Notes under the pieces: generated by a model
The model's input: the letters and a program-made list of their open reading frames with translations, nothing else
The model's database searches: none
Told to the model about the DNA's origin: nothing
Shown: in pieces, positions 2,041-57,765 of the stretch
Layout of the letters: every line of letters starts with the position of its first letter
Position numbering within the stretch: the first letter of the stretch is position 1
Program-made: the position numbers and the translations under genes
Assembly: GCA_964349485.1 (NCBI GenBank)
Contig: CAYGGE010000003.1
Span: 5,899-69,898 of the forward strand
Direction of reading: 5' to 3'
Source: an uncultured Candidatus Saccharibacteria bacterium
GTDB taxonomy: Bacteria; Patescibacteriota; UBA1384; CAYGGE01
Length of the DNA: 64,000 bases

Positions 2041-2178
2041 ATGAAAAATGTCCCGGTTACCAGCGTCCTCTCAATCGTCTTTGGCGTAATCATCCTCTTG
2101 GTGCCCCAGATTTTGTCCTATGCGATCGGTATCTACCTAATCTTAGTTGGCGCGCTCTCGTTTACTAAAGAAAAGTAA
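2041..2178 (+). CDS. small (45 aa) DUF3096-like membrane protein; below the ORF-track length cutoff
   Basis: strong RBS aggagg 5 nt upstream of ATG; hydrophobic MKNVPVTSVLSIVFGVIILLVPQILSYAIGIYLILVGALSF. Confidence 0.5.
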   Translation: MKNVPVTSVLSIVFGVIILLVPQILSYAIGIYLILVGALSFTKEK

Positions 2179-2188
2179 GGTTTGCCGA

Positions 2189-3310
2189 ATGGGGGATACA
2201 ACGGCTCCACTGGTTAAAGTATTTATTGCCCTGTGCATCGTCTCACTTGGAACGAACGTTATTTTGGGTTACCAGTGGCAAAGTGAACGTCAGCAGCTTC
2301 GCACCATGATTGCGGGAACCAAAAATGAACTCCAGCTTCGAAATGTTGAAAATAGTCAACTGAGCGAAGAGAACCAAGATTTCCAGACAGATATCGCCCG
2401 TAAGGAGCAAGAACTGGCGAAAAAGATAGCAGAGCTTGCTACCAAACAAAGTGCACTCAATGATTTGTCTAAACAACTGGCTGACAAGAAGTCCGAACTC
2501 GACACCAAGATTAGAGATTTAGCCGACGCAAAGAAGCAAGTCGACTCTCAAAAATCTCAGCTCGATGCCAATGCATCCGAACTCTCGAAGTTGCGTGACC
2601 GGCCACCCTTATTTTCTTTTCAGGTCAAGTCGACAAGTATAGTTGACGTAGAAGCCAAGAAGGCATCGGTGCAGCAAATCGTGACCGATGCCTATGAACT
2701 ATTTGATCAAATATATCCACGCTACTTGCTGAATAGCGTGACTATTACATTTGTTGATGCGTTTTCTAATCCTAACGCCGCCGGCGAAACAGTAATCAGT
2801 AATAGTAAAGATGGGTTGTCGATTGAAATACGGATTAAAGACTTCAATAAAAACAGTTTTAATGACATTAACACTATCCTCCACGAAGTGGCTCACGCCC
2901 TACGCGGAGTGGCAACGGTTGAGCCGACGGCTTGGGAAGAAGGATCGGCGGTAGCGATTACCGATGTGGTCATGCGAAAACTGGGCGACGCAGACAGGAT
3001 CCCTAAATTTAGTTCCTACTATATCCAGCTTACCGACACGCAATACGAAGCTAAACAAGCCAACCTCTCGATTCCTCGTGATGCTAACGCTTTTTATAGC
3101 AGTACCAAAGTTGTCGACTTCTACCAGGTTCTCGGTAAAGCCTGGTACAAACTCTATGAACAAGATATCGACTTCTTCAAAAAATTTAATGAAAAGCTCT
3201 ACGACCGAAAAGCTAGAGGCGAAGTGATTAACGAAGCCATGGTCCTCGATATCGTCCGCCAAGTCCTCCCCGAAGCGTCACTGACCGGCGCCGCTTGGAA
3301 TTTGAAGTAG
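2189..3310 (+). CDS. membrane-anchored coiled-coil protein with a C-terminal HExxH (zincin-like) domain
   Basis: N-terminal TM helix, ~120-aa heptad-repeat region (KQSALNDLSKQLADKKSELD...), then LHEVAHAL with downstream EEG; RBS aagtaagg. Confidence 0.55.
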   Translation: MGDTTAPLVKVFIALCIVSLGTNVILGYQWQSERQQLRTMIAGTKNELQLRNVENSQLSEENQDFQTDIARKEQELAKKIAELATKQSALNDLSKQLADKKSELDTKIRDLADAKKQVDSQKSQLDANASELSKLRDRPPLFSFQVKSTSIVDVEAKKASVQQIVTDAYELFDQIYPRYLLNSVTITFVDAFSNPNAAGETVISNSKDGLSIEIRIKDFNKNSFNDINTILHEVAHALRGVATVEPTAWEEGSAVAITDVVMRKLGDADRIPKFSSYYIQLTDTQYEAKQANLSIPRDANAFYSSTKVVDFYQVLGKAWYKLYEQDIDFFKKFNEKLYDRKARGEVINEAMVLDIVRQVLPEASLTGAAWNLK

Positions 3311-6121: not shown

Positions 6122-7816
6122 ATGGATGAAATTCTTTACCTTGAACCTGATGAAGAGATAACCACGGTTATCGATAAACTAAAAAAAGCGAACACCAATT
6201 CGGTCGGTTTAGTGATCCCTCGAAGTGCCACCTTAGTACACAGTATTGTTAACCTTAAATTGCTGAAAAAAGAGGCTCAAAGTCTTGGCAAGGAGATCGC
6301 TTTAGTCATGACCGACCGGATTGGCAAGAATATTGCTTCCCAAGTCGGTATCCCAGTTTTCGAAGATGTCCACGCTAAGCGGCCAGTCAATGCTCACGCC
6401 TTGCCGGACATGCCTAAAGGCGACGAAGTTATAGAAGTAGACATGTCTAGTGGTCATACGAAAGAGCCAGCCGTTGAGAGCTCGACTGACACTGAACCGA
6501 TTGTTAAACAATATAGTACACAAACGTCTGAAGAGTCAGATAAAGCTGATAGTGTTCGAAAACAGCCGATTACTGCGGAGCATGATGATCAATCTGGAGA
6601 AGCACAACCGAAAAACTCCAACCATCATGAGACTCAACATAGACCAAAGCATAGAACGGGCACAAAATTTAAATTGATTGCGGTCGTTGTTGTACTAGCT
6701 GTATTGGTTGCTGGTTCATTTCTAGGACTACCACAATCGACGGTCTCGATCATTGTCGAGGCTGAACCGTTCGAAAAGACTGTGCCAATTGTCATTGCTA
6801 GCGAAAAACGAGCTTCAGACGACGATTCAATTTCGGCTACTGGCCAGCTGCTAGTGGTAGAAAATGATGATGCGCGGCGCGTTACTGCAACCGGTAAAAA
6901 AGATGTTGGTGGTAAATCCACAGGTAGCGTTAGCATCTCCAACGCTTGGGACAGTAACTCGATCAAGCTTGCCGCCGGTACCGATTTTACGTCGACTGAT
7001 GGAAAAGTCTACGATCTTGCCGAGGCAGTTACCGTGCCTGGCGCGACTGCAACCCTAAGCCAAGGACAGCTCGTCGCGACACCGGGGAAAGTAACTGGGA
7101 CGCTAATTGCTTTTGAACCGGGCGATAGTTATAATATCAAACCGACAAAGTTTACGATTCAAAATATCCCGTCAGAGCGTAAAGAAAAGATCTTTGGTGA
7201 GAGTAGTAAGGATTTTTCCGGCGGATTTACGAAACAGATAAGCATCATGACTCAAACTGATATCGACTCTGCCAAAGAGAGCATGGTCGGAGATCTGAAA
7301 GACAAGGCGAAACAAGAACTGACTAAGCAAGGTAAGGACATGAAGTTGCTCAGCGAAGCCGTAGCCACCGAAGTAGTAAGCGTTGAGACTAATCCAAAGG
7401 CGGTAGGGAGTGAGACTGATTACTTTGACTTGAAGGTTAAAGTAAAGAATCAAGTTATGGTCTTTGATGAGAAGGGTATGAATAGTGCAGTTGATAACGC
7501 CGTACGCAAAAATGTACCTGACAACAAAGAGTTGATCCTCGGCGAGGATGACGAGTTCGTGATAGAAGTTGATAAAACTGATTATGACAATGGTCAGTTG
7601 ATACTGAACGCTAAAGTAAAAACTAAGATTGGGACCCGTGTAGACCCCAAGGAAGCGAGACAAGGCTTAGCCGGTAAGAACAAAACGACAATAATGCAAA
7701 CCCTCGCCGAGTTACCTAATGTCAAAAACGTAGAAGTTCAGAAGTTTCCTACTTGGTGGTGGCAAGATACTTCTTTTGCACCCTGGAATACTCGAGTTAA
7801 AGTACTCTATGAGTGA
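6122..7816 (+). CDS. hypothetical bitopic membrane protein (564 aa): ~190-aa cytoplasmic N-domain, one TM, ~350-aa external domain
   Basis: hydrophobic FKLIAVVVVLAVLVAGSFLGL; no recognisable catalytic motif. Confidence 0.5.
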   Translation: MDEILYLEPDEEITTVIDKLKKANTNSVGLVIPRSATLVHSIVNLKLLKKEAQSLGKEIALVMTDRIGKNIASQVGIPVFEDVHAKRPVNAHALPDMPKGDEVIEVDMSSGHTKEPAVESSTDTEPIVKQYSTQTSEESDKADSVRKQPITAEHDDQSGEAQPKNSNHHETQHRPKHRTGTKFKLIAVVVVLAVLVAGSFLGLPQSTVSIIVEAEPFEKTVPIVIASEKRASDDDSISATGQLLVVENDDARRVTATGKKDVGGKSTGSVSISNAWDSNSIKLAAGTDFTSTDGKVYDLAEAVTVPGATATLSQGQLVATPGKVTGTLIAFEPGDSYNIKPTKFTIQNIPSERKEKIFGESSKDFSGGFTKQISIMTQTDIDSAKESMVGDLKDKAKQELTKQGKDMKLLSEAVATEVVSVETNPKAVGSETDYFDLKVKVKNQVMVFDEKGMNSAVDNAVRKNVPDNKELILGEDDEFVIEVDKTDYDNGQLILNAKVKTKIGTRVDPKEARQGLAGKNKTTIMQTLAELPNVKNVEVQKFPTWWWQDTSFAPWNTRVKVLYE

Positions 7817-14069: not shown

Positions 14070-15635
14070 ATGTATTGGGCCGATGAGATTGCGCAAAAAG
14101 TTATTGCCCGTTCACCTGGCAAAAGCCTCTATCGAGTACATGACTATAAAACTCCTTCTGGGCGCATTCACGTGGGTGCACTTTGTGGCGTGATTATACA
14201 CGGAGTGGTTGCTCGAGCTCTTGAAGCTAAGGGTCACGATGTTGTCTACACCTACGGTTTCGATGACTATGATCCCATGGATGGTTTTCCTATCTATCTT
14301 CCAGAGAATTATCGTCAATATATGGGCATGCCACTTTCTGAGATTCCTTCTCCCCAGCCAGGCTACTCGAGTATTGCTGAACTATATGCGAAAGAATTTA
14401 TAGACGTATTTAACGCTCTCGGCTTTAAACCAACCATTTTGTTCATGAGTGAGTTTTATAAAACCGGCAAGTTTAACGAAGCGATCCGGATGGTTCTCGA
14501 CAATGCGGCAGTAATTCGGCAAATTTATAAAGAGGTAAGTGGTTCAGAGAAGCCCGATGACTGGTTTGGTCTGTCGGTACTTTGCCCCAACTGCGGTAAG
14601 ATTGGAACCACGCGGGTCTATGCGTGGGATGGCAAAGAAGTTAGTTTTAGATGTGAACCGGCAATGGTGAAGTGGGCCGAAGGTTGTGGTCATGTTGGGA
14701 AAGTTGATCCATTTGATGGTCGCTCAAAATTGCCATGGAAGATCGAGTGGGGAGCGAAATGGTGGATGTTTAATGAAGATTTTGAAACAGCTGGCAAAGA
14801 TCACATGACAAAAGGCGGTTCCTTCGATGTAGCTGCTTCGATTTGTCGACAAGTTTTTAAAGCCGAGCCCCCGGTTGGCCGCGAAGTGCCTTATGAGTGG
14901 CTTTTAGTTGGCGGTAAGAAAATGAGCTCTTCTAAAGGCACTGGTGCCAGCGCAAAAGAAGTCGCCGAGCTGTTGCCTTCGCATTTATTAAATTTCTATA
15001 TCGCTAAAGGTAAGATTAATCGTCACAAAGAATTCTCTCCAGACGACAACACCATGCCCTTACTTTACGATGAATATGACAAAGCGATTGTCGCCTACCA
15101 TGCAGACCCCGAAAGTGATTTAGCGAAGGTGATTAGTTACATTAAGTCTGACGATCAGGTGTTCCCCCAGTATACCATGCGTTTTACGAAAGTTGCCTTC
15201 TTATCCCAAATGCCGAGCGTCAATGTCTGGGACGTGGCTCGTAGCGAAAAGGGGACTGAGTTATTGCCAGAGGATGAGGCCGAGCTCACCGAACGGCTGG
15301 CCTATGCCGAGGTATGGTTAGCTACGCTAGCCCCCGATGCGTATAAGTTTGTGCTTCAAGCTACACTACCGTCGGTTACACTCACTGCGCTCCAGAAAAA
15401 TTTTCTCGAAAAACTATATACCATAATGCTTGAAAACGCTCAATTGACTGGTGCCATCCTTCACGAGAAAATTCATGCCCTCAAGACTGAAGCGAACCTC
15501 TCACCCGCAGAAGCATTTGGTGCCATCTATCATATCTTCCTGGCCAAAGACTCCGGTCCTCAGGCAGGTTGGTTCTTGGCGGCTCTTGATCGAGAATTTG
15601 TCCTCAATCGTCTGAAAGATGCAGCACTAAAGTAA
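14070..15635 (+). CDS. lysK: lysyl-tRNA synthetase, class I (archaeal-type LysK)
   Basis: HVGA (HIGH-type) and the class-I LysRS-specific KMSSSKGTG motif. Confidence 0.8.
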   Translation: MYWADEIAQKVIARSPGKSLYRVHDYKTPSGRIHVGALCGVIIHGVVARALEAKGHDVVYTYGFDDYDPMDGFPIYLPENYRQYMGMPLSEIPSPQPGYSSIAELYAKEFIDVFNALGFKPTILFMSEFYKTGKFNEAIRMVLDNAAVIRQIYKEVSGSEKPDDWFGLSVLCPNCGKIGTTRVYAWDGKEVSFRCEPAMVKWAEGCGHVGKVDPFDGRSKLPWKIEWGAKWWMFNEDFETAGKDHMTKGGSFDVAASICRQVFKAEPPVGREVPYEWLLVGGKKMSSSKGTGASAKEVAELLPSHLLNFYIAKGKINRHKEFSPDDNTMPLLYDEYDKAIVAYHADPESDLAKVISYIKSDDQVFPQYTMRFTKVAFLSQMPSVNVWDVARSEKGTELLPEDEAELTERLAYAEVWLATLAPDAYKFVLQATLPSVTLTALQKNFLEKLYTIMLENAQLTGAILHEKIHALKTEANLSPAEAFGAIYHIFLAKDSGPQAGWFLAALDREFVLNRLKDAALK

Positions 15636-20185: not shown

Positions 20186-20587
20186 CTAGCTTAGATAAGT
20201 ATTATGACTCTCACCGTCATAGCCGCGGCCAGGGACTAAGCGGACGTGGATTTTGAATTTTCGCACTAGGCCGTCATTGCCTTCGATCATATCAGTATTG
20301 TTTTTTTGCGAGTATTCGACGAGCTCGTACGACAAGAGCTCTTCGAGGGTGCCGATCTCCTCTTTGATATCTTTAATTTTTTCCATAAACTCACGGTTCT
20401 CGGCTTGGTTGACGATATCCTCACGGACCCGTTTCTTTTTAGTGTTAATCTCTTTTGACTCTTTGACGGCCGACTGATAAACGGCATCATTGTCGAGGGC
20501 ATTTTTTATCGCCTCGTTCGCGACTTTCATATCTTCCTTCAACTGTTCGATCGTGGCGATTCGTTTCTGAATACTGGCAATTTCCAT
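20186..20587 (-). CDS. hypothetical coiled-coil protein (133 aa), lone opposite-strand gene
   Basis: charged heptad-rich N-terminal 90 aa, small C-terminal segment; no known motif. Confidence 0.45.
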   Translation of the reverse strand: MEIASIQKRIATIEQLKEDMKVANEAIKNALDNDAVYQSAVKESKEINTKKKRVREDIVNQAENREFMEKIKDIKEEIGTLEELLSYELVEYSQKNNTDMIEGNDGLVRKFKIHVRLVPGRGYDGESHNTYLS

Positions 20588-20648: not shown

Positions 20649-20679
20649 CTTGCCGACTATATATAGATTCTTGCTATAA
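20649..20679 (+). promoter_or_regulatory. candidate sigma70-type promoter with extended -10 (TGcTATAAT) for the ppnK operon
   Basis: TGcTATAAT at 20671-20679, weak -35 TTGCCG; RBS aagagg 10 nt before ATG 20701. Confidence 0.45.
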
Positions 20680-20700
20680 TAACTTAAGAGGTATTACTTA

Positions 20701-21432
20701 ATGAAACGAATTATGACTATAGGGAGAGACCTATCGATCATCAACTCCATCCTAGAACAGGAGGGACTGCTTTTGGTTTCTACAGAGCCCGATCTGATTG
20801 TAACCCATGGGGGCGATGGATATCTATTACAGGCCGAACGTGAGTATCCGGGTGTGCCAAAACTGCCTATCCGCCGCAATTCGATCTGCAAAACTTGCGT
20901 CGATCACGATACGACTCATATTGTGAAAGCCTTAGCTCGAGGAACAATCTCCAAAAGTAGAGTCATGAAACTTGAGTGCACCATCGAAGGTAAAACATAT
21001 TACGCCCTCAACGAATTTTCGTTTCATCACGTTATGCTGAACCAGGCGATTCGGTTTGATGTGAAGATTAATGACGAAGATCATGTCGAAACAGCAATTG
21101 GCGATGGTTTAGTCGTCTCCACTCCCTTTGGCTCCCATGCCTACTATCGCAGTATTACGCGTAGTATATTCCGTCAAGGAATAGGCTTGGCATTTAACAA
21201 CACTACAGAAGCCATCGATCACCTGGTAATACGAGATACCGATACAGTCAGCGTGAAACTATTGCGTGGTCCGGCCTGTTTCATGTCGGATAACGATCCG
21301 ATCCAGATCACACTCGAGAAGGATGCTGTGGCGACAATTAGCAAATCGTCAAAGGTTGCTCAAATGCTGGGTCTTGAGTATTCACATTGCCCTGACTGCG
21401 GGGTGCTTGAGTCAACAGTAGCGGAGGCTTAA
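20701..21432 (+). CDS. ppnK: NAD(+) kinase-like (ATP-NAD kinase family)
   Basis: GGDGYLL (GGDG motif), DGLVVSTPFGSHAYYRS (NAD-kinase C-domain). Confidence 0.7.
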   Translation: MKRIMTIGRDLSIINSILEQEGLLLVSTEPDLIVTHGGDGYLLQAEREYPGVPKLPIRRNSICKTCVDHDTTHIVKALARGTISKSRVMKLECTIEGKTYYALNEFSFHHVMLNQAIRFDVKINDEDHVETAIGDGLVVSTPFGSHAYYRSITRSIFRQGIGLAFNNTTEAIDHLVIRDTDTVSVKLLRGPACFMSDNDPIQITLEKDAVATISKSSKVAQMLGLEYSHCPDCGVLESTVAEA

Positions 21433-21992
21433 TGGCGACAACAATTCATTTTATACGGCATGGCTCAGTTGAGGATCCGCTTGATATATACTATGGTCGG
21501 TTACCTGGGTATCCATTGAGCCAACTTGGAAGAGATGAAGCTACACAGCTGGCAAAACGATTAAAGAACTATCCGATCACAAAGATATATACTAGTCCTC
21601 TTCAGAGGACGCAAGAGACAGCTAAGATCATCAGCGAGCAAATAGATTGTCAGATAGTGGTCGATCAGCGACTGATTGAAGTCAATGCTTCATTCGAAGG
21701 TCAACCGCGAGTCGATTTGCATCGTAAACGGACGGCCGCCGACTACGGTGAATCGATGGCCGAGATCTTCGATCGGATGTCTAAATTTGTAAACCAAGTA
21801 GTGGTTGAACATCCTGACGAGCAAATAGTGGCGGTCAGTCACGGTGGTCCAATTCGCTTACTGGTGATGGGCCTCGAATCACTTCCCTTTACCGATTACG
21901 CTTACGAAGAAGAGGGTGCTCCAGACTACGCATCGGACACTGTCATACGGGTAGATGACAAGGGGGCGACGATCACAAAACTCAATTTCTAG
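21432..21992 (+). CDS. histidine phosphatase family protein (phosphoglycerate-mutase-like)
   Basis: IHFIRHGSVED (RHG catalytic motif), VSHGGPIR. Confidence 0.75.
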   Translation: MATTIHFIRHGSVEDPLDIYYGRLPGYPLSQLGRDEATQLAKRLKNYPITKIYTSPLQRTQETAKIISEQIDCQIVVDQRLIEVNASFEGQPRVDLHRKRTAADYGESMAEIFDRMSKFVNQVVVEHPDEQIVAVSHGGPIRLLVMGLESLPFTDYAYEEEGAPDYASDTVIRVDDKGATITKLNF

Positions 21993-22045
21993 GTGCGTAT
22001 TTTTCTAATGGCTATGATACAATAAATTGAACAATAGGAGGGGCT

Positions 22046-22513
22046 TTGATTTACTTGGCCTCTGATCATGGTGGTTATGCGCTGAAAGAAAAATTGAAAG
22101 AATGGTTAAAAGGTCGAAAGATTCCGCACAAGGACTTTGGGCCAGCTTCGCTGGACCCGGAAGACGACTATCCTGACTACGTTCTGCCTTTGGCGGCTGC
22201 TGTTGCTAAGGATAACGTCAAAGGTATCGTCATCTGTCGTAACGGGCAAGGGGCGGCAATTGCTGCCAATAAGACACCAGGCATACGGGCGGCCGTCTGT
22301 CTCGACACACATTGCGCGACAAGCTCACGTAACGACGACGATGCTAATATCCTGAGTCTTCCGGGCGACTACCTAACTCTGGCGCAGGCTGAAAATATTG
22401 TTAGCAACTGGCTATTCACGCCATTTTCCCATCATGCGAGACATGTCCGTCGACTAGCCAAGCTCGCCGATTTTGAACAGGAGATAGATAAGAAACGAGG
22501 GACCAATGCTTGA
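22046..22513 (+). CDS. rpiB: ribose-5-phosphate isomerase B (RpiB/LacAB family); TTG start, uncertain
   Basis: ASDHGG, GIVICRNGQGAAIAANK, CLD motifs. Confidence 0.8.
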   Translation: MIYLASDHGGYALKEKLKEWLKGRKIPHKDFGPASLDPEDDYPDYVLPLAAAVAKDNVKGIVICRNGQGAAIAANKTPGIRAAVCLDTHCATSSRNDDDANILSLPGDYLTLAQAENIVSNWLFTPFSHHARHVRRLAKLADFEQEIDKKRGTNA

Positions 22514-23063
22514 AACATTGAAATACAAGGTCTGTATCTCAGGCTCTGCTGTCATGAACGAACCGCCTTCGGTAAAGGAGAAGGCTAAGGCCTTAGGTCG
22601 CGAGTTAGCGGCACAAAAGGTAGTGGTCTTAACTGGGGCGACGACTGGCTATCCTTACTATGCGGCGGTCGGTGCCAAAGAAGCCGGCGGAGTGACAATT
22701 GGTTTCTCTCCGGCGATGAGTTACAAAGAGCATACAAAAAAATACCGATTGCCAACCGATAATCATGATCTCATTGTCTATACCGGTTTCGGTTATTCAG
22801 GTCGCAATCTATTTTTAGTTCGTTCCGGCGATGCAGTCATCCATATTGCTGGTCGGATTGGCACGTTAAACGAATTTACAAGTGCATTTGAAGATAAAAA
22901 AGTGATCGGCGTATTGCTTGGGACTGGTGGCACATCGTCGTTAATCGATGGGATCATCGAGATCGCCGATCGTGGGGCAGGTAAGATCGTCTATGACGAC
23001 GATCCTGTGGCCTTGGTTCAACAAGTTGTACAGCTCATAAAGAAGGAAGCCCATGCGGATTAG
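22506..23063 (+). CDS. LOG/TIGR00725-like Rossmann-fold protein (SLOG superfamily)
   Basis: VVLTGATTGYPYYAAVGAKEAGG and HIAGRIGTLNEF (GG-GT--E LOG-like motif). Confidence 0.6.
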   Translation: MLETLKYKVCISGSAVMNEPPSVKEKAKALGRELAAQKVVVLTGATTGYPYYAAVGAKEAGGVTIGFSPAMSYKEHTKKYRLPTDNHDLIVYTGFGYSGRNLFLVRSGDAVIHIAGRIGTLNEFTSAFEDKKVIGVLLGTGGTSSLIDGIIEIADRGAGKIVYDDDPVALVQQVVQLIKKEAHAD

Positions 23064-24396
23064 CTTCCACGGTGCTGCCGGTGAGGTAACTGGCTCAAAT
23101 TTTTTTGTCGAGTCAGGCGATGAACGAATCTTGATCGACTGTGGTATGTTCCAAGGTAGTCGCTTTGCTGAGGAATCAAACTACAAACCACTGCCCTACG
23201 ATGTTCGTGGTTTGACCGGACTTATCTTAACTCACGCTCATTTGGATCACTGTGGTCGCATACCTAAACTCTATAAAGATGGCTTTCGAGGCAAGATCTA
23301 TGCGACAGGGCCGACTTGTGAGCTTGCGGCGATAGTTATGGCCGATGCCGCTGGTATCATGGCTTATGAGGCGGAAGAAGATGGTCACGAGCCACTCTAC
23401 AGTGAGGATGACGTCACCAAGGTGCTAGCCCTTTTCGAACCAGTTGATTATCACCGACCAACTTCACTTGGGAAGAATTTCCGTTTTGAATTTTACGATG
23501 CTGGTCATATCCTTGGGGCGGCGAGTATCTTGCTAAAATCAGAAGGAAAAAAAGTAGTTTTCTCTGGTGATATTGGTAACTATCCCGTGCCCATGATGAA
23601 TCAGCCAGAAGTGCCAGCACAAGCCAATCTAGTAGTTATGGAATCGACCTATGGTGGCCGTTATCACGAGACGGCGGTAGATCGACGCTCGAAACTTCGG
23701 TTAGTGATCCGTCAAACCATCGCACGCAAAGGAGTGTTGCTAATCCCCGCTTTTGCTCTCGAGCGAACACAAGAGATACTTTACGAATTGGCTGGGCTTT
23801 CCGACGATGGATTACTCCCTCATGTACCAATCTTTCTCGATAGCCCCATGGCGATTGCCGCTACTGAAATATATGAACAGAGCATCCGCTACTTCAACCA
23901 CGAAGCCCAGGTTGCTCACAAGATCGGCAATGCCTTGTTCTCCTTTCCTGGTTTGAAGATTACTGAAACATCCGGTCAATCCAGAGCGATAAACCAGGTA
24001 GTCGGACCAAAAATAATTATCGCCGGTTCGGGCATGATGGAGGGTGGACGTATCCAACACCATGCTAAACATTATCTACCTGACACGACTACGACTTTGC
24101 TAATTGTTGGTTACCAAGGAAAGGGGACGCTCGGTCGTGAACTATATGACGGGAGGCGACGCGTCAAGATTCGTGGATCATCGGTGACAGTTCATGCTCG
24201 AGTAGTCGCAATCGGTGCCTATTCAGCTCATGCTGATCAACAAGGACTTGAAGATTGGCTCGGGCGTTTCAAAACTAAACCAAATAAAGTATATTTGGTT
24301 CACGGAGAAGAAGATGGAGCGAGTAAGATGGCGACCAAGATAAAGGATCGCTACGATGTTTCGATCCCAAAACCGGGTACTGAGGCAACATTATGA
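23053..24396 (+). CDS. MBL-fold beta-CASP ribonuclease (TTHA0252 / RNase-J-like)
   Basis: N-terminus MRISFHGAAGEVTGSNFFVESGDERILIDCGMFQG, HAHLDHCGRIP metallo-beta-lactamase motif, beta-CASP C-half. Confidence 0.75.
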   Translation: MRISFHGAAGEVTGSNFFVESGDERILIDCGMFQGSRFAEESNYKPLPYDVRGLTGLILTHAHLDHCGRIPKLYKDGFRGKIYATGPTCELAAIVMADAAGIMAYEAEEDGHEPLYSEDDVTKVLALFEPVDYHRPTSLGKNFRFEFYDAGHILGAASILLKSEGKKVVFSGDIGNYPVPMMNQPEVPAQANLVVMESTYGGRYHETAVDRRSKLRLVIRQTIARKGVLLIPAFALERTQEILYELAGLSDDGLLPHVPIFLDSPMAIAATEIYEQSIRYFNHEAQVAHKIGNALFSFPGLKITETSGQSRAINQVVGPKIIIAGSGMMEGGRIQHHAKHYLPDTTTTLLIVGYQGKGTLGRELYDGRRRVKIRGSSVTVHARVVAIGAYSAHADQQGLEDWLGRFKTKPNKVYLVHGEEDGASKMATKIKDRYDVSIPKPGTEATL

Positions 24397-25055
24397 TCCA
24401 ATTCATACCGACCATTCTCGAATCGACGGCTGATTCGTTTATGACTAAACGGGCGTTGCTTGAACCACTGGTGAAACGTATTTCACTTGATTTTGCAGAC
24501 AATACGTTGGTTCCCAATCAGACTGTCTTACCAGGTGACATCTCGCCTCTCTCACTAGATCATGAGTACGATGCTCATCTCATGGTGAGCGAGCCGAGCC
24601 AGTACTTTAATGCTTTGAAAACTGTTGGAGTCACTAGAGTGATTGTCCATATGGAATCGGCAGAAAATATGACATCGTTAATCGAGAAGGCCAAGCAGTC
24701 GAACCATGGCGTAGCTATCACGCTCAATCCAGAGACCCCAATCGATGAACTAGAGCCATACTTAGGACAGATTGAATTTGTCCAGATCATGGCTATTCAC
24801 CCGGGTTTTGGTGGCCTGCCATTTGTGAGCGAGACGTTTGATCGGATCCGTCAGTTACGAGACATGGCTCCCAAACTCGATATTGCTGTCGATGGCGCGG
24901 TTCGTTATGATAATGCTGAGTCCCTTATAGATGCTGGAGCGACGATGTTGATGGTCGGCAAGGGTGGATATGTGACAGATGATGATGTCGAAAAGGGGAT
25001 TACCAAGTGGCACCATCTGATCGACACCCATCTGAAAGGATCTCATGTTAGTTAA
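24393..25055 (+). CDS. rpe: ribulose-phosphate 3-epimerase
   Basis: PTILESTADSF...DAHLMV...DIAVDGAV TIM-barrel RPE motifs. Confidence 0.8.
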   Translation: MIQFIPTILESTADSFMTKRALLEPLVKRISLDFADNTLVPNQTVLPGDISPLSLDHEYDAHLMVSEPSQYFNALKTVGVTRVIVHMESAENMTSLIEKAKQSNHGVAITLNPETPIDELEPYLGQIEFVQIMAIHPGFGGLPFVSETFDRIRQLRDMAPKLDIAVDGAVRYDNAESLIDAGATMLMVGKGGYVTDDDVEKGITKWHHLIDTHLKGSHVS

Positions 25056-25893
25056 TACGATCGAGATGCTCAAAAATGCCCGCAAGCACGGCTATGCAGT
25101 CGGTGCCTTCAATACTTGCGATCTTGAGATCAGTCAAGCTATCATCGACACTGCAACTAAGCTAAACAGCCCAGTTATCATTCAAACCAGCGAAAAGGCG
25201 ATCGATTACGCCGGTATCGAAGCAATTTATGGTATTTTGCTGACTCTCGCGAAAGCGGCGCCAGTTCCGGTGGCCATTCATCTCGACCACGGTAAGAGTG
25301 TCGAACGTGCAAAACAGTGTATCGAAATTGGTTACAGCTCAGTCATGATTGATACCTCTGTGCTCGATTACGATGAGAATGTTAAAGCAGCGCAGGCAGT
25401 TGTAGCGATGGCCCATCCGAAACACGTCAGTGTGGAAGCTGAGCTGGGGGTTCTTTCTGGAAAAGAAGACTATGTGGCAGCCCTCGAATCGAAAATGACT
25501 AAGCCGAATCAAGCAGTCGAGTTTATCGAGAAGACTGGCGTCGACAGCTTGGCGATTTCGATTGGTAACGCCCACGGAGTGCCTTCGGCCAAAGAAATTT
25601 TCGATCTATTTCGGCTAGAAGAGATTGCTAAGAAAGTCTCGATTCCTCTTGTTCTCCACGGCGCCTCAAGTACCCCACCAGCAAGAATCAAAAGGGCGAT
25701 CGAACTTGGGATCGCCAAGATCAATATAGATACCGACTTACGTCTCGGCTTCAATAACGATTTACGAGCATTTCTAGAGTCGCATCCCGATGCTTACGAT
25801 CCACGGGAGATCTTAACCAAAGCGACCGAGGGGGTTCGTAAGGTAGTGGCGAAGAAAATGGCACTTTTTGGGTCGGTTAATCAAGCAAGCTGA
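25045..25893 (+). CDS. fba: class II fructose/tagatose-bisphosphate aldolase
   Basis: GYAVGAFNTCDLE, VAIHLDHGKS, LVLHGASSTP. Confidence 0.85.
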   Translation: MLVNTIEMLKNARKHGYAVGAFNTCDLEISQAIIDTATKLNSPVIIQTSEKAIDYAGIEAIYGILLTLAKAAPVPVAIHLDHGKSVERAKQCIEIGYSSVMIDTSVLDYDENVKAAQAVVAMAHPKHVSVEAELGVLSGKEDYVAALESKMTKPNQAVEFIEKTGVDSLAISIGNAHGVPSAKEIFDLFRLEEIAKKVSIPLVLHGASSTPPARIKRAIELGIAKINIDTDLRLGFNNDLRAFLESHPDAYDPREILTKATEGVRKVVAKKMALFGSVNQAS

Positions 25894-25903
25894 AGGAGAC
25901 GCC

Positions 25904-26887
25904 GTGCACGATGTAATCGCTATCGGGGATATGAGTATCGATGTCTTTTTAGAGATGAATAAAAAAGAAGCCGATATTCATTGCTCAGTTCGCCATGAGG
26001 ACTGTAAGATTTGTTTCAATTACGCCGATAAGATTCCAGTTGAAGCCATGGTTCGAACAATTGGTGGAAACTCAGCCAATATTGCGGTCGGGGTGCGTCG
26101 ACTCGGTTTGAAATCGGCAATGGTAACCAATCTAGGGAAAGATGAAGAAGGTCAAGTTTGTCGAAAAGCCCTTTGGCATGAAAGAGTTGACACTCGCTTT
26201 ATTGATTTTAATAAGCGAACCAATCTCTCGACCGTGATTAATTATCTCGGTGAGCGGACGATCTTTATCTATCACGAAGAGCGTGAATATCGACTGCCCA
26301 GTTTGCCGAAAAGCCGATATATCTACTTCTCATCGATGAAAAAAGGTTGGGATGTGGTAATCGATCCGCTGGTTAAATATCTTGATCGTCATAAAGTTAA
26401 ACTGGCTTATAATCCTGGGACATACCAACTGCGCGATGGTGCCAAGCTCTCTGCACCACTTTTAAGTCGCTGTGAAATTTTTTATGTCAACCGTGAAGAG
26501 GCGATTCTCTTCACCGGACAGAAGGAAGACGTTAGTTATACCGAGCTATTTGATGCACTTCACAAGCTCGGTCCAAAAATAGTCGTGATTACCGATGGCC
26601 CGAAAGGTTCGTATGTCTCTGATGGTGAACAGCAGTATGTTCTTGGTATATTCGACGTACCTGTAATCGAGCGGACTGGCTGTGGCGATGCCTTTGCCAC
26701 CGGGTTCTTAGTTGCAATTATGGAAGGTAAGTCATTGACTGATGCGATGCGTTGGGGCAGTTTTGAATCTGCAGCCGTCTTGCAAGAAATTGGGCCAGAA
26801 GCTGGCTTGTTACGAAAACATGAGTTAGCTAATTATGAAAAAAAATATCCAAATTTTACGGCGAAAACACTATCAAAAAAACACTAG
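25904..26887 (+). CDS. PfkB-family carbohydrate kinase (ribokinase-like); GTG start with aaggag RBS
   Basis: VIAIGDMSIDVF N-terminal motif, C-terminal TGCGDAFATGFL anion-hole motif. Confidence 0.75.
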   Translation: MHDVIAIGDMSIDVFLEMNKKEADIHCSVRHEDCKICFNYADKIPVEAMVRTIGGNSANIAVGVRRLGLKSAMVTNLGKDEEGQVCRKALWHERVDTRFIDFNKRTNLSTVINYLGERTIFIYHEEREYRLPSLPKSRYIYFSSMKKGWDVVIDPLVKYLDRHKVKLAYNPGTYQLRDGAKLSAPLLSRCEIFYVNREEAILFTGQKEDVSYTELFDALHKLGPKIVVITDGPKGSYVSDGEQQYVLGIFDVPVIERTGCGDAFATGFLVAIMEGKSLTDAMRWGSFESAAVLQEIGPEAGLLRKHELANYEKKYPNFTAKTLSKKH

Positions 26888-26904
26888 ACAGTAGAGGAGT
26901 TACT

Positions 26905-27924
26905 ATGGCAACGGCAATTAATGGTTTTGGCCGAATCGGCCGAACCGCGCTAAGAGTCATGTTGGAACGAGGCATGGAAAGTCAGTTAGTGGCTGTCAAC
27001 GATCTGACCGATGCAGTTACTTTGGCTCATTTACTCAAGTACGATACGAATTATGGAGTTCTTGCGGCTGAAGTAGGTGGTGAAAATAAGCCCATGAGTA
27101 AGCATGGCACAGGCTCAGTCGGTACACTAACCGTGAATGGCCATCAAATCGCAGTCTTTGCTGAGAAAGATCCAAGTCATTTGCCTTGGAAAGAGTTAGA
27201 GATCGATACTGTAATCGAATCAACCGGTCATTTCACCGATGCTAAAGGGGCGAAACTACACCTCGATGCAGGGGCCAAGCGGGTAGTCATCTCAGCACCA
27301 GCTAAAGACGGGACCGTAAAAACGATTGTTCTCGGAGTAAACGGTGAGAGCAAGGATGCCAATGAGGCGATTATCTCCAATGCTTCCTGCACAACAAACT
27401 GTGTCGCACCAGTTGCCCAAATCATGGTGGCCGAGTTCGGAGTCAAGAAAGCACTCATGACGACGATCCATGCTTACACGCAAGATCAAAATCTTCAAGA
27501 CGGACCACATAAAGATCTCCGCCGTGCCAGAAGTGCAGCGGCGAATATTGTACCCACATCTACTGGTGCAGCGATCGCCGCTACCGAAGTAATTCCTGAA
27601 CTCAAGGGCTTGTTCGATGGTGTGGCAATTCGCGTCCCGGTGCCTGTCGGTTCGCTCTCTGACTTTACTTTCCTATTGAAGAAGCGAGTGACGGTCAAAG
27701 AAGTTAACGCAATTTTGAGCGAAGCCGCCAACAGTAGCCGCTACAAAGGCATACTAGCCGTAACCGACGAACCAATTGTCTCATCGGACATCATCGGTGA
27801 CCCACATTCGTCGATTGTTGATCTCTCACTGACCCAAGTTGTCGACGGTGATCTTGTCAAAGTCTTCGCTTGGTACGATAACGAATATGGATACTGCAAT
27901 AGACTTATTGACCAGTTGTCATAG
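26905..27924 (+). CDS. gap: glyceraldehyde-3-phosphate dehydrogenase, type I
   Basis: INGFGRIGR, SNASCTTNCVAP, WYDNEYGY. Confidence 0.95.
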   Translation: MATAINGFGRIGRTALRVMLERGMESQLVAVNDLTDAVTLAHLLKYDTNYGVLAAEVGGENKPMSKHGTGSVGTLTVNGHQIAVFAEKDPSHLPWKELEIDTVIESTGHFTDAKGAKLHLDAGAKRVVISAPAKDGTVKTIVLGVNGESKDANEAIISNASCTTNCVAPVAQIMVAEFGVKKALMTTIHAYTQDQNLQDGPHKDLRRARSAAANIVPTSTGAAIAATEVIPELKGLFDGVAIRVPVPVGSLSDFTFLLKKRVTVKEVNAILSEAANSSRYKGILAVTDEPIVSSDIIGDPHSSIVDLSLTQVVDGDLVKVFAWYDNEYGYCNRLIDQLS

Positions 27925-32988: not shown

Positions 32989-33019
32989 CCATATTTCTCC
33001 TTCGTTGGGAAGGAGCAAT

Positions 33020-34480
33020 ATGAGTCAATTGAAAGTATATCCGGATTACCTTTTCCGCGCGCTCTTTGGTCTATTGTTTGGGCTGATCGTCTTATTGCCA
33101 GACAAGATCCATGCGTTGACTATCAACGAAGTGGCCTACGACGTCCGTGGGGCCGATACCAATCGCGAGTGGATAGAGCTCTATAACGAAACTTCCATTT
33201 CGATCGATCTGACTGGAGCTAAACTTCAAGCGATACATAACCTACCGGCTGACCCGCCTCCATCGCCAACCTTAACTGGTTCCCAGATTCAGTCGCCACC
33301 CGTCGGTGGCGGGCGGGGCACTCTGGTCATGGAGCCAGGAGGCTATTTAATATTGGCTCAGAAGCCCGATCTGTTACTCATAGATAACCCAGATCTCCCC
33401 GAACCATGGGCCAAAGTCTCCTTTTCAGCGCTAGCAAACTATCAAGCTGATGAGACAAAGCGGACGACTCTAAAAGTGATCAATAAAGAGGGTTTAGTCT
33501 TGGGAGAGACCAGTTACAGCCCTGGTCCACGAGAGACTTATCCTGAAGGAACTACAATTGAATATCAAGTCGACAACGGTTGGCAACCGTCAAAAGAGCT
33601 GGGAGGAACACCCGGTCGAGTGAATAGCACCTGGTCATTGGCGAGCCCAACGCCACAAAGTTACCCCAGTGGCGTCCGTTTTTCGGAAATATACCCTAAT
33701 GCGGTAGGCGATGACAAAGGTCATGAATGGATAGAGTTCGAAAATACGGGGTCTAACTCTGTCGATCTGACGGGTTGGTATATGGTCGATACATCGGGCA
33801 AGAAGGAACTTCTTTCAGCGAACACGATGCTTGAACCAGGAGCATTTCGACAAGTTATTGTTTCAAGTTTGTCAATTAACAACGATAGTACGAAAACGGC
33901 TGAAGAACTTCGCCTCTATTGGCCAAGTGATCAAGAGACTGATCGAGTGACCTTAGTTGATAAGGCAAAGGAAGATTGGAGCTATGCCCGCTTCTCTAAT
34001 GAGTGGTGGTGGACGGATCAACCGACACCAGGTAGTAAAAACCAACAGTTACAAGCGACTACCTCACCTACAAGCAGTCACTTGATGACGCCATCTCCCC
34101 AGCTAACAATTACTTCGCGTCAACAACCGTCATCTGTGCCTACAATATCTAAGCTAGTAAAATTAGCAGTGACAGAAAAGCCTGTTAGTACCCCAACATC
34201 AAGACCAAAGCCAAAGAGTACAACCAATAAATTGACGCCTAAATCCCAACTAGCGACTCTACGGCCTGAATTGGTAAGTCCAAGCCCAAGAACTGCGAGG
34301 CTATCACAGGTTAAGGGCGTGACAACGAACAATCATCGCGAATCAAGCCGTCCGATTCTAATCACTGGTTTAGTCGTCATTGTGCTGAGCTCAATCGGTC
34401 TGGTGGCACTCTATCGTTATAAGTTGTTATCATTTATTCCTAAGTTACGTAGTCTCTGGCCACCGGAAGTGCTGAAGTGA
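33020..34480 (+). CDS. lamin-tail-domain (LTD) surface protein with S/T/P-rich stalk and C-terminal TM anchor
   Basis: two LTD-like modules (TINEVAYDVRGADTNREWIELYN; VRFSEIYPNAVGDDKGHEWIEFEN), PTS-rich linker, C-terminal hydrophobic helix; RBS ggaaggag. Confidence 0.65.
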   Translation: MSQLKVYPDYLFRALFGLLFGLIVLLPDKIHALTINEVAYDVRGADTNREWIELYNETSISIDLTGAKLQAIHNLPADPPPSPTLTGSQIQSPPVGGGRGTLVMEPGGYLILAQKPDLLLIDNPDLPEPWAKVSFSALANYQADETKRTTLKVINKEGLVLGETSYSPGPRETYPEGTTIEYQVDNGWQPSKELGGTPGRVNSTWSLASPTPQSYPSGVRFSEIYPNAVGDDKGHEWIEFENTGSNSVDLTGWYMVDTSGKKELLSANTMLEPGAFRQVIVSSLSINNDSTKTAEELRLYWPSDQETDRVTLVDKAKEDWSYARFSNEWWWTDQPTPGSKNQQLQATTSPTSSHLMTPSPQLTITSRQQPSSVPTISKLVKLAVTEKPVSTPTSRPKPKSTTNKLTPKSQLATLRPELVSPSPRTARLSQVKGVTTNNHRESSRPILITGLVVIVLSSIGLVALYRYKLLSFIPKLRSLWPPEVLK

Positions 34481-34591: not shown

Positions 34592-36073
34592 TTGGTGGTA
34601 GGAAGACCTCGACGACGACTGACCGCCACATCGCATTACAAAGCCATTGCCGGCCGGGCGGCAGCCTCGCCGAGTATTATTGATGAACGACGTCATAATC
34701 GTCAGAAAGTACAACCGATAAAACTTTTTTTTAGTGTCGTTTTCATCTGCATCCTGATCGTTGGCAGTTGGATGGGAGCTAAAAGTGCCCAAACCTACAA
34801 TAAAGTAGTCGATACGAGCGGTACAAAACGTGCTCCAGCATTAAAGTTTCTAGACGACATCAAGCCAAACCAGCTCAATGGCGAAGGCGACGGGCGAATC
34901 AATGTCTTGCTGATCGGAGTTGGCGGTGCCCGTCACCCAGGAGGAACTCTAGCTGACACAATCATGGTGGCCAGTTTCGATACTAAGAAAAATGAAGTCG
35001 CTCTCCTCTCGATACCCCGTGATCTCTACGTCCCAATCAGCGGTAACGGGAGTGGTAAGATCAACTCGGCCCACTCTTTCGGCGAGTTGAACGTTAAAAC
35101 GACTGGAGGCGGTCCAGCCGTTCTTAAGAAAACTGTGAGCACAATTCTTGATTTACCGATCCATTATTATGTCCGGGTTGATTTCGACGGGCTTAAGGAC
35201 TTGGTTAACGCGCTAGGTGGCGTATCCGTCAACGTAGAGAAGCCGATTATTGACCTCGCTTACCCAGCCGACAATATGATTGATTTTCAACCTTTCCGTT
35301 TGAGTGCTGGACTCCAAAGCATGAACGGGATAACGGCCCTCAAGTATGCTCGTTCTCGTCATGCGGCCGGTAGCGAAGGGAGCGATTTTGCCAGGGCAAA
35401 ACGACAGCAAATTCTGCTTTCAGCTATCCGTTCCAAGGCACTCTCGGCGGGGGTTTTAACTAGCCCAACCAAAATCAATAACATCTTGACTGTCCTTGGT
35501 AACCACATCAAGACAGACATCACTATTTGGGAAGCCCAGCGCTTTTTGCAGACCTGGAAAGATGTTAACTCCTCAAACATCCTGACCAAAGTTATTGACA
35601 ATGGCCCCAATGGACCGTTGATGGCTCATTCGGGTGATGAGCGTGGTTATATCTTGCTTCCACGCACTGGCGACTTTAGTGAAGTCGCCGAAATCGCCCA
35701 TGAGATCTTTGTTGATCCGTTCTTGAGAGAAGAACAGGCTACCATATCTGTCGTCAACGCTAGTGGGAGCACCGCTACTGGTCGCAGTGTCATGGCTCAA
35801 TTGAACAGCTATGGCTACAAGGTGACTGACAATACCCCGAAAGCCCAAGTTACACAGCTCAAAACAGTAATGATTGATTATACAAAGAACAAACCGTACA
35901 CCAAGAAGTTTCTAGAGAAAAGATTTAAAGTGACTGCCACACCGGTTAGATCGACAGCTAGTCCGGCGATTTATGACATAACTCTGACGATTGGTCAGGA
36001 TTATGTACCCAAGAAAGTCCAGACGACACTGAAACCAACACCAAAACCTAGCACAGCGGTTAGTGATCTATGA
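34592..36073 (+). CDS. LytR-CpsA-Psr (LCP) family cell-wall glycopolymer transferase with LytR_C domain
   Basis: TM anchor, INVLLIGVGG...ADTIMVASFD...LLSIPRDLYV LCP core, C-terminal ISVVNASGSTATGRSVMAQLNSYGYKV. Confidence 0.8.
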   Translation: MVVGRPRRRLTATSHYKAIAGRAAASPSIIDERRHNRQKVQPIKLFFSVVFICILIVGSWMGAKSAQTYNKVVDTSGTKRAPALKFLDDIKPNQLNGEGDGRINVLLIGVGGARHPGGTLADTIMVASFDTKKNEVALLSIPRDLYVPISGNGSGKINSAHSFGELNVKTTGGGPAVLKKTVSTILDLPIHYYVRVDFDGLKDLVNALGGVSVNVEKPIIDLAYPADNMIDFQPFRLSAGLQSMNGITALKYARSRHAAGSEGSDFARAKRQQILLSAIRSKALSAGVLTSPTKINNILTVLGNHIKTDITIWEAQRFLQTWKDVNSSNILTKVIDNGPNGPLMAHSGDERGYILLPRTGDFSEVAEIAHEIFVDPFLREEQATISVVNASGSTATGRSVMAQLNSYGYKVTDNTPKAQVTQLKTVMIDYTKNKPYTKKFLEKRFKVTATPVRSTASPAIYDITLTIGQDYVPKKVQTTLKPTPKPSTAVSDL

Positions 36074-36531
36074 ACCGCATTAATTTAATTATGGCCGGTC
36101 TGTTCGTACTTTCTATCATGTCATTTGTGTTGATCGAAAAAGCGACTGCATATCGGGTAAGTAGTCTCGTTTATCTCGTCTTGGTTGGTGCATATGGTAT
36201 CTTTTTGCGTCGCAACGATGTTTTTGCCGCAAGTACCTTATTCTTTAGCCTCTATAGTGTCAATCAATACCTGTTTGTAGAGCTACTTCCAGCTTGGATC
36301 AGTATCGCCTCTGCCAGTTTACTGGTCTTAATTCTCTGGTGGATAGCCTATCGTAATGAGGGATGGCCAGTAGCGATTGCGATCTCTATTCTGGTTTGTG
36401 AGCTGTCGATTGTTAGCCAGTACACAGTACTCGACAACCGCTGGCAGGCCTACATTGTCACCCTACCCTTCTTACTTGCTTTTCAGCAAAATGCTACTGA
36501 TTTCCGTCCCAATAATTCTGAAGTCACTTGA
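36070..36531 (+). CDS. hypothetical polytopic membrane protein
   Basis: 4-5 predicted TM helices; overlaps the LCP gene stop. Confidence 0.45.
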   Translation: MNRINLIMAGLFVLSIMSFVLIEKATAYRVSSLVYLVLVGAYGIFLRRNDVFAASTLFFSLYSVNQYLFVELLPAWISIASASLLVLILWWIAYRNEGWPVAIAISILVCELSIVSQYTVLDNRWQAYIVTLPFLLAFQQNATDFRPNNSEVT

Positions 36532-57087: not shown

Positions 57088-57765
57088 TTATTCACCCGTC
57101 GGCTTGATTCGCTTGGTCTTGGGGCGTTCTTCTTGGACTTTTGGCAGCGTGATGGTGAGTACACCGTTTCTCATGTCGGCTGTTGCTTCATCACTGATTA
57201 CTGGAAGAGGAAGGCCGAATGTTCGGCTAAAGGATTGTTGTCGATATTCTTGACGCAGATAGTCTTGTGAATTATTCTTTCCCTCACTTATGGCTGTACC
57301 GCTAATCGTCACGAACTCATCAGCCACATCGATATCGATCTGTTCTCGCGTAAAACCTGGGGTGTGAGCTTCGAGATAGAGCTGCTTTTCGTCTTGTCTG
57401 ACGTTGATCATCGGGAACGTTGTTCCAACCGTGAGCGGAAAATGGATATCCTGATCAAAGGGCTGATCAATGTGTTCCCTGGCATCGGTCAGCGATCCCC
57501 ACGGGCTCACGTCCTTACCGATCGCCACTCCTTTTTCGACCCCCTTATCTTCCACTTTACTGGTTACTGGCATGGTCCGGATCACATCCTCTAATGGCTC
57601 ACGAAAAAACTCAGCCAGTTGAATAGCGAGTGGCAACGAGGGTAACCATCGACCCTGTTCAAGGGAGATCAGAGACTGACGTGAAATGTTAAGCTGTTTA
57701 GCCAGCTCCTCTTGGGTCAGATGATGATGTTTACGAAGCTCTCGAACTCGAACAATAATTTGCAT
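57088..57765 (-). CDS. fusion protein: N-terminal XRE-family HTH DNA-binding domain + C-terminal Hsp20/alpha-crystallin domain
   Basis: N-terminus LRKHHHLTQEELAKQLNISRQSLISLEQGR (HTH_XRE); C-terminus EAHTPGFTREQIDIDV...GVLTITLPK (alpha-crystallin domain hallmark). Confidence 0.7.
   Translation of the reverse strand: MQIIVRVRELRKHHHLTQEELAKQLNISRQSLISLEQGRWLPSLPLAIQLAEFFREPLEDVIRTMPVTSKVEDKGVEKGVAIGKDVSPWGSLTDAREHIDQPFDQDIHFPLTVGTTFPMINVRQDEKQLYLEAHTPGFTREQIDIDVADEFVTISGTAISEGKNNSQDYLRQEYRQQSFSRTFGLPLPVISDEATADMRNGVLTITLPKVQEERPKTKRIKPTGE

Follow-up and report, generated by a model that had tools for sequence, protein, structure and literature searches.

A conserved gene pair encoding a SLOG cluster4 protein and a beta-CASP ribonuclease in Patescibacteria, embedded in one lineage in a sugar-phosphate operon

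Nine open reading frames (ORFs), here numbered g1 to g9, lie on one strand of contig CAYGGE010000003.1 from an uncultured Candidatus Saccharibacteria bacterium, within a 64-kb stretch (the window, that is, the whole stretch of DNA that we analysed). They make up a conserved sugar-phosphate operon of a bacterium belonging to the candidate phyla radiation (CPR, or Patescibacteria). Embedded in this operon is a two-gene module, which consists of the gene for a SLOG cluster4 (SLOG4) protein of the LOG superfamily (g4) and the gene for a beta-CASP ribonuclease (RNase, g5). Here, we show that these two genes form a conserved module in several hundred CPR species. The pair is the conserved unit, and the sugar-phosphate operon is its lineage-specific setting. 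Neither the component parts, which are all of familiar kinds, nor the operon itself is unusual; what is new is that the RNase is coupled to SLOG4 in a conserved manner and that this coupling is wired to pentose-phosphate enzymes. As to function, we propose, with a probability of roughly 0.45, that the RNase supplies nucleoside 5'-monophosphates (5'-NMPs), which SLOG4 would hydrolyse to base plus ribose-5-phosphate, and that ribose-5-phosphate isomerase B (RpiB) and ribulose-phosphate 3-epimerase (Rpe), elsewhere transketolase, would continue from there.

To survey the distribution of the pair, each GTDB species was represented by a single genome. The stretches that matched numbered at least 589, the best 80 were taken, and the SLOG ORF could be indexed in 72 of these loci. 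All of the best 80 stretches belong to Patescibacteria. A beta-CASP ortholog lies no more than two genes from SLOG4 in 65 of the 72 CPR species loci; in 60 of them, it is the gene immediately upstream and shares the strand of SLOG4, and in three it is directly downstream, as in the window. The two genes are also closely packed: the gap between them has a median of 23 nt over the 63 adjacent pairs and is at most 50 nt in 46 of these. Generic synteny near SLOG4 is far weaker (Mur ligase in 18/72 loci, RuvA in 16/72). Homologs of g4 keep 57–79% identity across named candidate phyla of the CPR, the nearest named relative coming from a Berkelbacteria metagenome-assembled genome. Relative to the window, the median identity is 59.6% for SLOG4 versus 45% for the RNase. 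The pair also occurs in reversed order in Minisyncoccia and one Parcubacteria genome, amid RuvA, Mur ligase and an amino-acid-type permease. An earlier note on this DNA had proposed that a LOG-like gene is functionally linked to the RNase gene, and this link is borne out by the 65 loci, by the occurrence of both gene orders and by natural fusions. In the literature, we found no paper linking beta-CASP RNases with SLOG, TIGR00725 or LOG proteins, no known case of a LOG coupled to an RNase and no paper joining Patescibacteria with phosphoribohydrolase, in a search that did not extend to the paper in which SLOG was introduced (Burroughs et al. 2015).

Certain other genes recur downstream of SLOG4. 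At positions +1 to +3 (loci L009 to L088), an Aa_trans/Trp_Tyr_perm-type permease is encoded in 49 of 72 loci and an MgtC-family protein in 17; a protein of about 90 amino acids with a weak Peptidase_U32_C-like match is found at the same positions in 23. The permease could be a part of the SLOG4–RNase module.

The two proteins are also joined in single polypeptides. An exhaustive representative search recovered a natural fusion, with the architecture MBL-betaCASP-RMMBL-SLOG4, in five clusters whose identity to the fusion P0271 goes down to 62%. One of these clusters is named Candidatus Sericytochromatia and has a non-CPR genomic context, and the RNase part of the fusion is orthologous to g5 (E 9e-85). 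Inside the CPR, a search with the concatenated g5 and g4 sequences gave no fusion among the best 120 matches. A related arrangement is found at locus L090, on a 2.9-Mb contig with 73% guanine plus cytosine. Here, a canonical type-II LOG gene with intact motifs (GGGPGVME and PGGYGTLDE) stands upstream of an ortholog of the RNase, in the same order as in the window and with a gap of 4 nt. A LOG-type gene lies within 4 kb of the RNase, and in fact no more than 600 nt away, in three of 80 further metagenomic loci with non-CPR RNase orthologs, which is about ten times a rough chance estimate (0.4%) and still rare. The idea that a LOG–RNase link is general to this RNase family was rejected on this count. 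At L090 (596-3223, minus strand) and at the P0271 locus, a P-type cation ATPase gene adjoins the LOG–RNase pair and the fusion, respectively, maybe by coincidence.

SLOG4 genes are found with no RNase nearby in about 10% of the CPR loci. At L091 (3573-8576), which has no RNase, a SLOG4 gene of 43% identity heads a pyrD-pyrK-pyrC-pyrE-pyrF operon and overlaps its start. On the other side, a gene for a pterin-binding DUF4346 protein is transcribed divergently from it, in a context that looks archaeal (PAC2, ThrRS). Other SLOG cluster4 architectures (P0220, P0169, P0269, P0125, P0246) are a CMP/RibD-type deaminase fused to SLOG4, again with no RNase, a fusion of SLOG4 to a YHS metal-binding domain, and SLOG domains in tandem.

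The RNase of the pair belongs with TTHA0252 of Thermus thermophilus and the archaeal aCPSF-type beta-CASP RNases. Its best PDB match is TTHA0252 (2dkf, E 5e-93), with which it can be aligned from end to end (residues 1-423) and shares all of the metal-binding motifs, namely HxHxDH (THAHLDHCG), GH, GD, E, H(A)D and HGE. The protein is a predicted RNase and would act in an NMP-producing mode. RNases of this type are nearly always encoded beside SLOG4 in the CPR, whereas their non-CPR orthologs rarely have a LOG-type neighbour. In a relative of 74% identity (L009, 1975-2925), the beta-CASP gene is without residues 173-308, which correspond to the Beta-Casp domain, through gene decay or an assembly deletion.

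The protein encoded by g4 had been labelled LOG/TIGR00725-like in the earlier note. This label needs correction: g4 scores below the cut-offs of TIGR00725 (67.4, cut-off 106.9), TIGR00730 (34.1, cut-off 96.35), PF03641 (24.2, cut-off 27) and NF058542 (21.6, cut-off 300), and its best family is PF18306, the SLOG cluster4 family, which the public gene call likewise carries. By sequence, its closest solved relatives are TM1055 of Thermotoga maritima (1rcu, TIGR00725 type) and the molybdenum cofactor (Moco) carrier or binding proteins 2iz5 and 6y01, with true LOGs only weakly matched. Foldseek was run with an AlphaFold (AF2) model of g4 (predicted local distance difference test, pLDDT, 93.3). The best structural match is again 1rcu (template modelling score TMq 0.79, 26% identity), followed by the Moco-binding proteins (TM 0.74-0.78) and AMP-bound type-I LOGs (TM 0.74-0.76). 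TIGR00725/PF18306 is the group that provides both the best Pfam and the best structural match of g4, which differs from it in falling under the TIGR00725 cut-off and in having a CPR signature of its own. This signature, invariant in the CPR subfamily, reads TGATTGxPY, YTGFxYxGRNL and GRxGTLNEFxxAFED, and the subfamily has an extra invariant loop (H76, Y80, P83 and D88).

With the LOG/PpnN family (PF03641, TIGR00730; CgLOG, CgLOGII/TtLOGII and E. coli PpnN), g4 shares the Rossmann-like SLOG fold, at a TM of about 0.75 to AMP-bound LOGs, and the positions of the catalytic and phosphate-binding residues. In a profile alignment, R100 and E123 of g4 correspond to the catalytic Arg155 and Glu178 of CgLOGII, and T120, G119 and G116 to its phosphate-binding Thr175, Gly174 and Gly171 (residue roles from PMC5379747 for CgLOGII and PMC4979012 for CgLOG). 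All five residues are invariant in 45 CPR homologs of g4. On the other hand, the literal motif PGGxGTxxE, which the earlier note had singled out for checking, is missing. In its place g4 reads AGRIGTLNE (A115-E123), where the proline, variable in the family, has become alanine and the second glycine an invariant arginine. The first glycine-rich loop is TGATTG in place of GGGxxG, and the base-contacting Asp177 of CgLOGII (Asp or Glu in LOGs) has become a near-invariant Asn in the g4 family. The g4 protein is predicted to bind nucleoside 5'-monophosphates and is possibly an N-ribohydrolase; LOG-family enzymes hydrolyse AMP, yielding adenine and ribose-5-phosphate (PMC5379747). The Arg/Glu dyad is also retained by Moco carrier proteins and so cannot be taken as diagnostic: it permits catalysis and does not prove it.

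Pentose-phosphate genes accompany the pair in two lineages. Two relatives of the window (L174 and L175) keep the array NADK-like-(HisPhos)-RpiB-SLOG-bCASP-Rpe-FBA-PfkB-GAPDH-FtsE-FtsX, with an RNase sharing just about 57% identity with g5, and a third (L010) keeps it from RpiB onwards, with a divergent Rpe. A different arrangement, bCASP-SLOG-RpiB-Rpe, is found in four Uhrbacteria-type genomes; in three of them, a glycosyltransferase (GT2) follows Rpe and precedes split transketolase halves, TktN-TktC. Transketolase, not found in the window, is present in this second arrangement. RpiB directly adjoins SLOG4 in L009, L010, L174 and L175, and does so on the opposite side in L013, L015, L035 and L064. 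SLOG4 therefore abuts RpiB in two arrangements, and LOG-type hydrolysis yields ribose-5-phosphate, which RpiB takes as its substrate. The pentose link drawn in the earlier note survives in this form, with RpiB and Rpe flanking the pair in two lineages and in differing arrangements, whereas its extension to FBA, PfkB and GAPDH is limited to the window's lineage.

Other genes were noticed at these loci. In L174 (607-5131) and L175 (255-5715), an extra xylose-isomerase-like TIM-barrel gene (AP_endonuc_2) overlaps the start of the NADK-like gene, and between SecA and the cluster there are genes for a NUDIX protein, a YfbR-like HD 5'-nucleotidase and a 2',5'-RNA-ligase-like protein; the window has none of these. 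At three of the Uhrbacteria-type loci (L035, 3664-6771; L064, 6494-8419; L015, 2012-5020; all on the minus strand), large proteins are encoded divergently upstream of the RNase–SLOG pair. By eye, their N-terminal sequence is similar to that of a lamin-tail-domain protein of the window (33005-34480, plus strand).

The proposed route would consist of three steps. First, the g5 RNase would break RNA down to nucleoside 5'-monophosphates or short oligonucleotides. Second, SLOG4 would use its LOG-type Arg/Glu dyad to cut the N-glycosidic bond of the 5'-NMPs, which would release free base and ribose-5-phosphate. Third, the adjacent RpiB and Rpe would interconvert the pentose phosphates and the bases would be salvaged; in other genomes, transketolase would carry the pentose phosphate onward. 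We infer this direction of flux, as well as any physical complex of the two proteins. A path from RNA through NMPs to ribose-5-phosphate had already been suggested in the earlier note. It is plausible and in part supported: the pairing, the active-site residues and the RpiB/Rpe neighbourhood speak for it, but the LOG cut-offs and the literal motif do not. In addition, SLOG4 occurs in nucleotide-centred contexts (the pyr operon and the deaminase fusion), and a canonical LOG stands beside the RNase at L090. In a broader version of the proposal, SLOG4 and the beta-CASP protein would be a dedicated two-enzyme module from RNA to ribose-5-phosphate and bases, widespread in Parcubacteria-type CPR, fused in Sericytochromatia and serving as the main ribose and base harvest of RuBisCO-less CPR. 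This wider claim is tentative, and we are inclined to doubt it.

Several observations weigh against the hydrolytic route. At the level of the protein, g4 does not reach the cut-off of any LOG model, the solved structures closest to it are those of the function-unknown TM1055 and the Moco carrier and binding proteins, and these Moco proteins share its Arg and Glu positions. Both glycine-rich motifs have changed (GGGxxG to TGATTG and PGGxGT to AGRIGT), as has the base-contacting Asp. Our literature search found no demonstrated enzymatic activity for any PF18306/TIGR00725 member, and no paper that gives PF18306 an enzymatic function. TTHA0252 is said to be mainly an endonuclease, so an output of NMPs is not assured. 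Metabolically, the destruction of nucleotides seems costly for organisms that are unable to make them. At the level of gene order, most CPR pairs sit among unrelated genes (RuvA, Mur ligase and the Aa_trans-type permease), about 90% of the sampled pairs are without a sugar-phosphate gene in the vicinity, the 10 kb around the pair hold no counterpart of the window's own sugar-phosphate genes in 66 of the 80 GTDB loci, and the linkage of FBA, PfkB and GAPDH to the pair is confined to the window's own lineage. Finally, no transketolase or transaldolase that could bring pentose phosphate to FBA and GAPDH was found in the 64-kb window, which weakens the earlier suggestion that pentose-phosphate carbon is carried to these two enzymes.

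Some of these points would fit a non-catalytic SLOG4 that binds a ligand. As a partner of the RNase, it would sense an NMP, an alarmone or another small molecule and tune the RNase, with the pentose genes being incidental. Besides enzymes, the SLOG domains described include sensors of nucleotides or ligands (PMC6459960, citing Burroughs et al. 2015), and the nearest solved relatives of g4 are binding proteins rather than enzymes. The motif changes relative to LOG fit a loss of catalysis, but the Arg/Glu dyad and the phosphate-binding residues are invariant. Tight adjacency, translational overlap and fusion form the pattern of a regulatory subunit, and the higher conservation of SLOG4 than of the RNase is expected with an interaction surface. 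Yet SLOG4 also occurs without the RNase, in the pyr operon, in the deaminase fusion and in about a tenth of the CPR loci, which suggests an autonomous activity. Moreover, a catalytically intact, canonical LOG can occupy its position beside the RNase, and RpiB is its immediate neighbour in two differing arrangements. All considered, we regard the sensor as less likely than the hydrolytic route, and as its most serious competitor.

In a second alternative, which overlaps with the sensor, the pair would lie among sugar-phosphate genes simply because the genes of a small genome are packed together. The pair would then act in RNA processing or turnover only, with no path from RNA to glycolysis. This would account for the 66 loci with no sugar-phosphate homologs near the pair, for the adjacency of FBA, PfkB and GAPDH in the window's lineage only and for the lack of transketolase and transaldolase in the 64 kb; it also agrees with the layout of the window, where nearly all genes over 45 kb are on one strand with short gaps. 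It sits badly with the recurrence of RpiB against SLOG4 in two lineages and in differing orders, where Rpe comes next and one lineage adds the split transketolase, and with a nine-gene array that is kept where the RNase is only 57% identical. We consider this alternative improbable.

Far less probable still is a role for g4 as a SLOG protein of the DprA kind, which would bind nucleic acid and load the RNase onto single-stranded RNA or guide it there. Foldseek retrieves DprA structures at a probability of 1.0, and a tandem-SLOG relative gives a sub-threshold match to the DprA Pfam model. However, g4 itself has no match to this model (PF02481, DNA_processg_A) at E ≤ 0.01, its TM to DprA is 0.62-0.67 as against 0.74-0.79 to LOG/TIGR00725-type structures, and it retains the mononucleotide phosphate-binding GT motif. 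The grouping with DprA/Smf proteins that the earlier note had considered was not seen. Least credible of all is a molybdenum-cofactor or pterin carrier like Chlamydomonas MCP (2iz5-7) and Rippkaea MoBP (6y01), which have the fold of g4 and match its family profile (E 2e-14 to 8e-11; TM 0.74-0.78), and to which the DUF4346 gene beside one archaeal-type SLOG4 would be a pointer. With MCP, g4 shares just about 25% identity; neither the 64-kb window nor the examined loci showed a gene for Moco biosynthesis or for a Moco enzyme, the RNase partner and the pentose-phosphate setting have no MCP counterpart, and a conserved RNase link has no rationale for a Moco carrier.

The closest metabolic parallel to the hydrolytic route is the nucleoside pathway of AMP phosphorylase, ribose-1,5-bisphosphate (R15P) isomerase and form II/III or III RuBisCO, which is found in archaea and some CPR (PMC5113843; PMC7304191). 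Like the route proposed for g4 and g5, it would feed nucleotide ribose into the central carbon metabolism of organisms with minimal metabolism. The chemistry differs: the RuBisCO route proceeds by phosphorolysis to ribose-1,5-bisphosphate and then carboxylation, whereas the proposed route would proceed by hydrolysis to ribose-5-phosphate. A search of the 64-kb window found no TPI, PGK, RuBisCO, AMP phosphorylase or R15P isomerase.

The nine genes of the cluster are listed in table 1. All of those given in the earlier note were found as plus-strand ORFs at their coordinates. Its family calls agree with Pfam and NCBIfam for g2, g3 and g5 to g9 and need correction for two genes, in the LOG/TIGR00725-like label of g4 and the ppnK label of g1. 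For g8, the PfkB family stands and the start is shifted, probably to 25904 as in the public gene call, rather than the TTG at 25868, which would overlap g7.

Table 1. Features of the nine-gene cluster (coordinates are those of the window; scores in bits where so marked, with model cut-offs in brackets).
Feature	Coordinates	Strand	Assignment	Evidence
Cluster	20701-27924	+	Nine ORFs, g1-g9, of the 64-kb window	ORF list
Upstream signal	20650-20700	+	Possible promoter TTGCCG-19 nt-TATAAT and AAGAGG ribosome-binding site	Within the 113 nt of intergenic DNA ahead of g1
g1	20701-21432	+	Distant NAD-kinase-like protein, 243 aa, GGDG motif	PF20143 29.2 bits (23.7)
g2	21432-21992	+	Histidine phosphatase superfamily (branch 1)	PF00300 (His_Phos_1) 131.7 bits
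g3	22046-22513	+	Ribose-5-phosphate isomerase B (RpiB)	TIGR00689 144.4 (88.3); NF004051 142.6 (135)
g4	22506-23063	+	SLOG cluster4 (LOG-superfamily) protein	PF18306 114.6 bits (26.3), model positions 1-125 of 151
g5	23053-24396	+	TTHA0252-type beta-CASP metallo-beta-lactamase ribonuclease	Lactamase_B PF00753, Beta-Casp PF10996 and RMMBL PF07521, all above cut-off
g6	24393-25055	+	Ribulose-phosphate 3-epimerase (Rpe) family	PF00834 120 bits; NF004076 134.7, below cut-off (165)
g7	25045-25893	+	Class II ketose-bisphosphate (fructose-1,6-bisphosphate) aldolase	PF01116 321 bits
g8	25904-26887	+	PfkB-family sugar kinase, 327 aa	PF00294 126.8 bits; start from public gene call
g9	26905-27924	+	Type I GAPDH	TIGR01534 402.9 (367.2)

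Some of these assignments stop at the family. The Pfam match of g1 is confined to the C-terminal domain of NAD kinase, and all NCBIfam NAD-kinase models score far below their cut-offs (the best 54.9 bits versus 219). Its best PDB match is the NAD kinase of Listeria (E 1.5e-7), and a counterpart of g1 heads the cluster in L174 and L175. The histidine phosphatase g2 reaches no NCBIfam equivalog; phosphoserine phosphatase and PhoE-type phosphatases are its nearest PDB entries, and its counterpart is present in L174 and absent from L175 and L010. For the aldolase g7, the subfamily model TIGR00167 is passed (292.8, cut-off 215.6) and the FBA equivalog TIGR01859 narrowly missed (338.4, just under 343.05), with tagatose-bisphosphate aldolase models scoring similarly. 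For g8, all NCBIfam equivalogs that name a substrate score far below cut-off (best 114.8 versus 300), and in the PDB it matches YdjH, fructokinase, PH1459 and ribokinase (best E 1e-18 to 5.5e-12).

The junctions of the nine genes are short or overlapping: -1 nt (g1/g2), +53 (g2/g3), -8 (g3/g4), -11 (g4/g5), -4 (g5/g6), -11 (g6/g7), +10 (g7/g8) and +17 (g8/g9). Since nearly all genes between about 4.8 and 50 kb of the window are on the plus strand with short gaps, the shared orientation of g1 to g9 is little informative. The promoter candidate before g1 is a consensus match only, and its 19-nt spacer exceeds the limit of the promoter scan by one base. Between 19900 and 28900, promoter- and terminator-like sites are as numerous as in shuffled sequence, so they are uninformative on whether the operon is split. 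When the window and three loci of the pair were compared with Rfam, tRNAs were the only matches, and neither a riboswitch nor a leader RNA was detected. Immediately upstream of g1, an ORF of 133 amino acids (20186-20587, minus strand) has no significant Pfam match and keeps its position in L174 and L175.

Elsewhere in the window, a Pup-ligase family gene (PF03136; 3388-4761, minus strand) adjoins FtsA-like and MreB genes; to our knowledge, pupylation-type ligases are not usually associated with CPR bacteria. A single protein (57088-57765, minus strand) combines an XRE-type HTH_3 domain with an Hsp20/alpha-crystallin domain, and the lysyl-tRNA synthetase (14070-15635, plus strand) is of the class I type (tRNA-synt_1f). 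Four sizeable ORFs (6122-7816, 55440-56846, 2147-3310 and 36070-36531) have no significant Pfam match.

CPR bacteria are unable to make nucleotides and have a patchy central metabolism. Their supply of ribose, bases and energy is at present explained mainly by the RuBisCO nucleoside pathway, which is absent from many lineages. In this context, the pair of an RNase and a LOG-superfamily protein whose catalytic dyad is intact, connected in two lineages with RpiB and Rpe and in one of them also with transketolase, is a candidate for a second ribose and base route in the CPR. If this is true, it would be the first enzymatic function for PF18306/TIGR00725, a large family of unknown function, and a hydrolytic counterpart to the route of AMP phosphorylase and RuBisCO. 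If SLOG4 is a ligand sensor instead, the pair would define a new regulated RNase.

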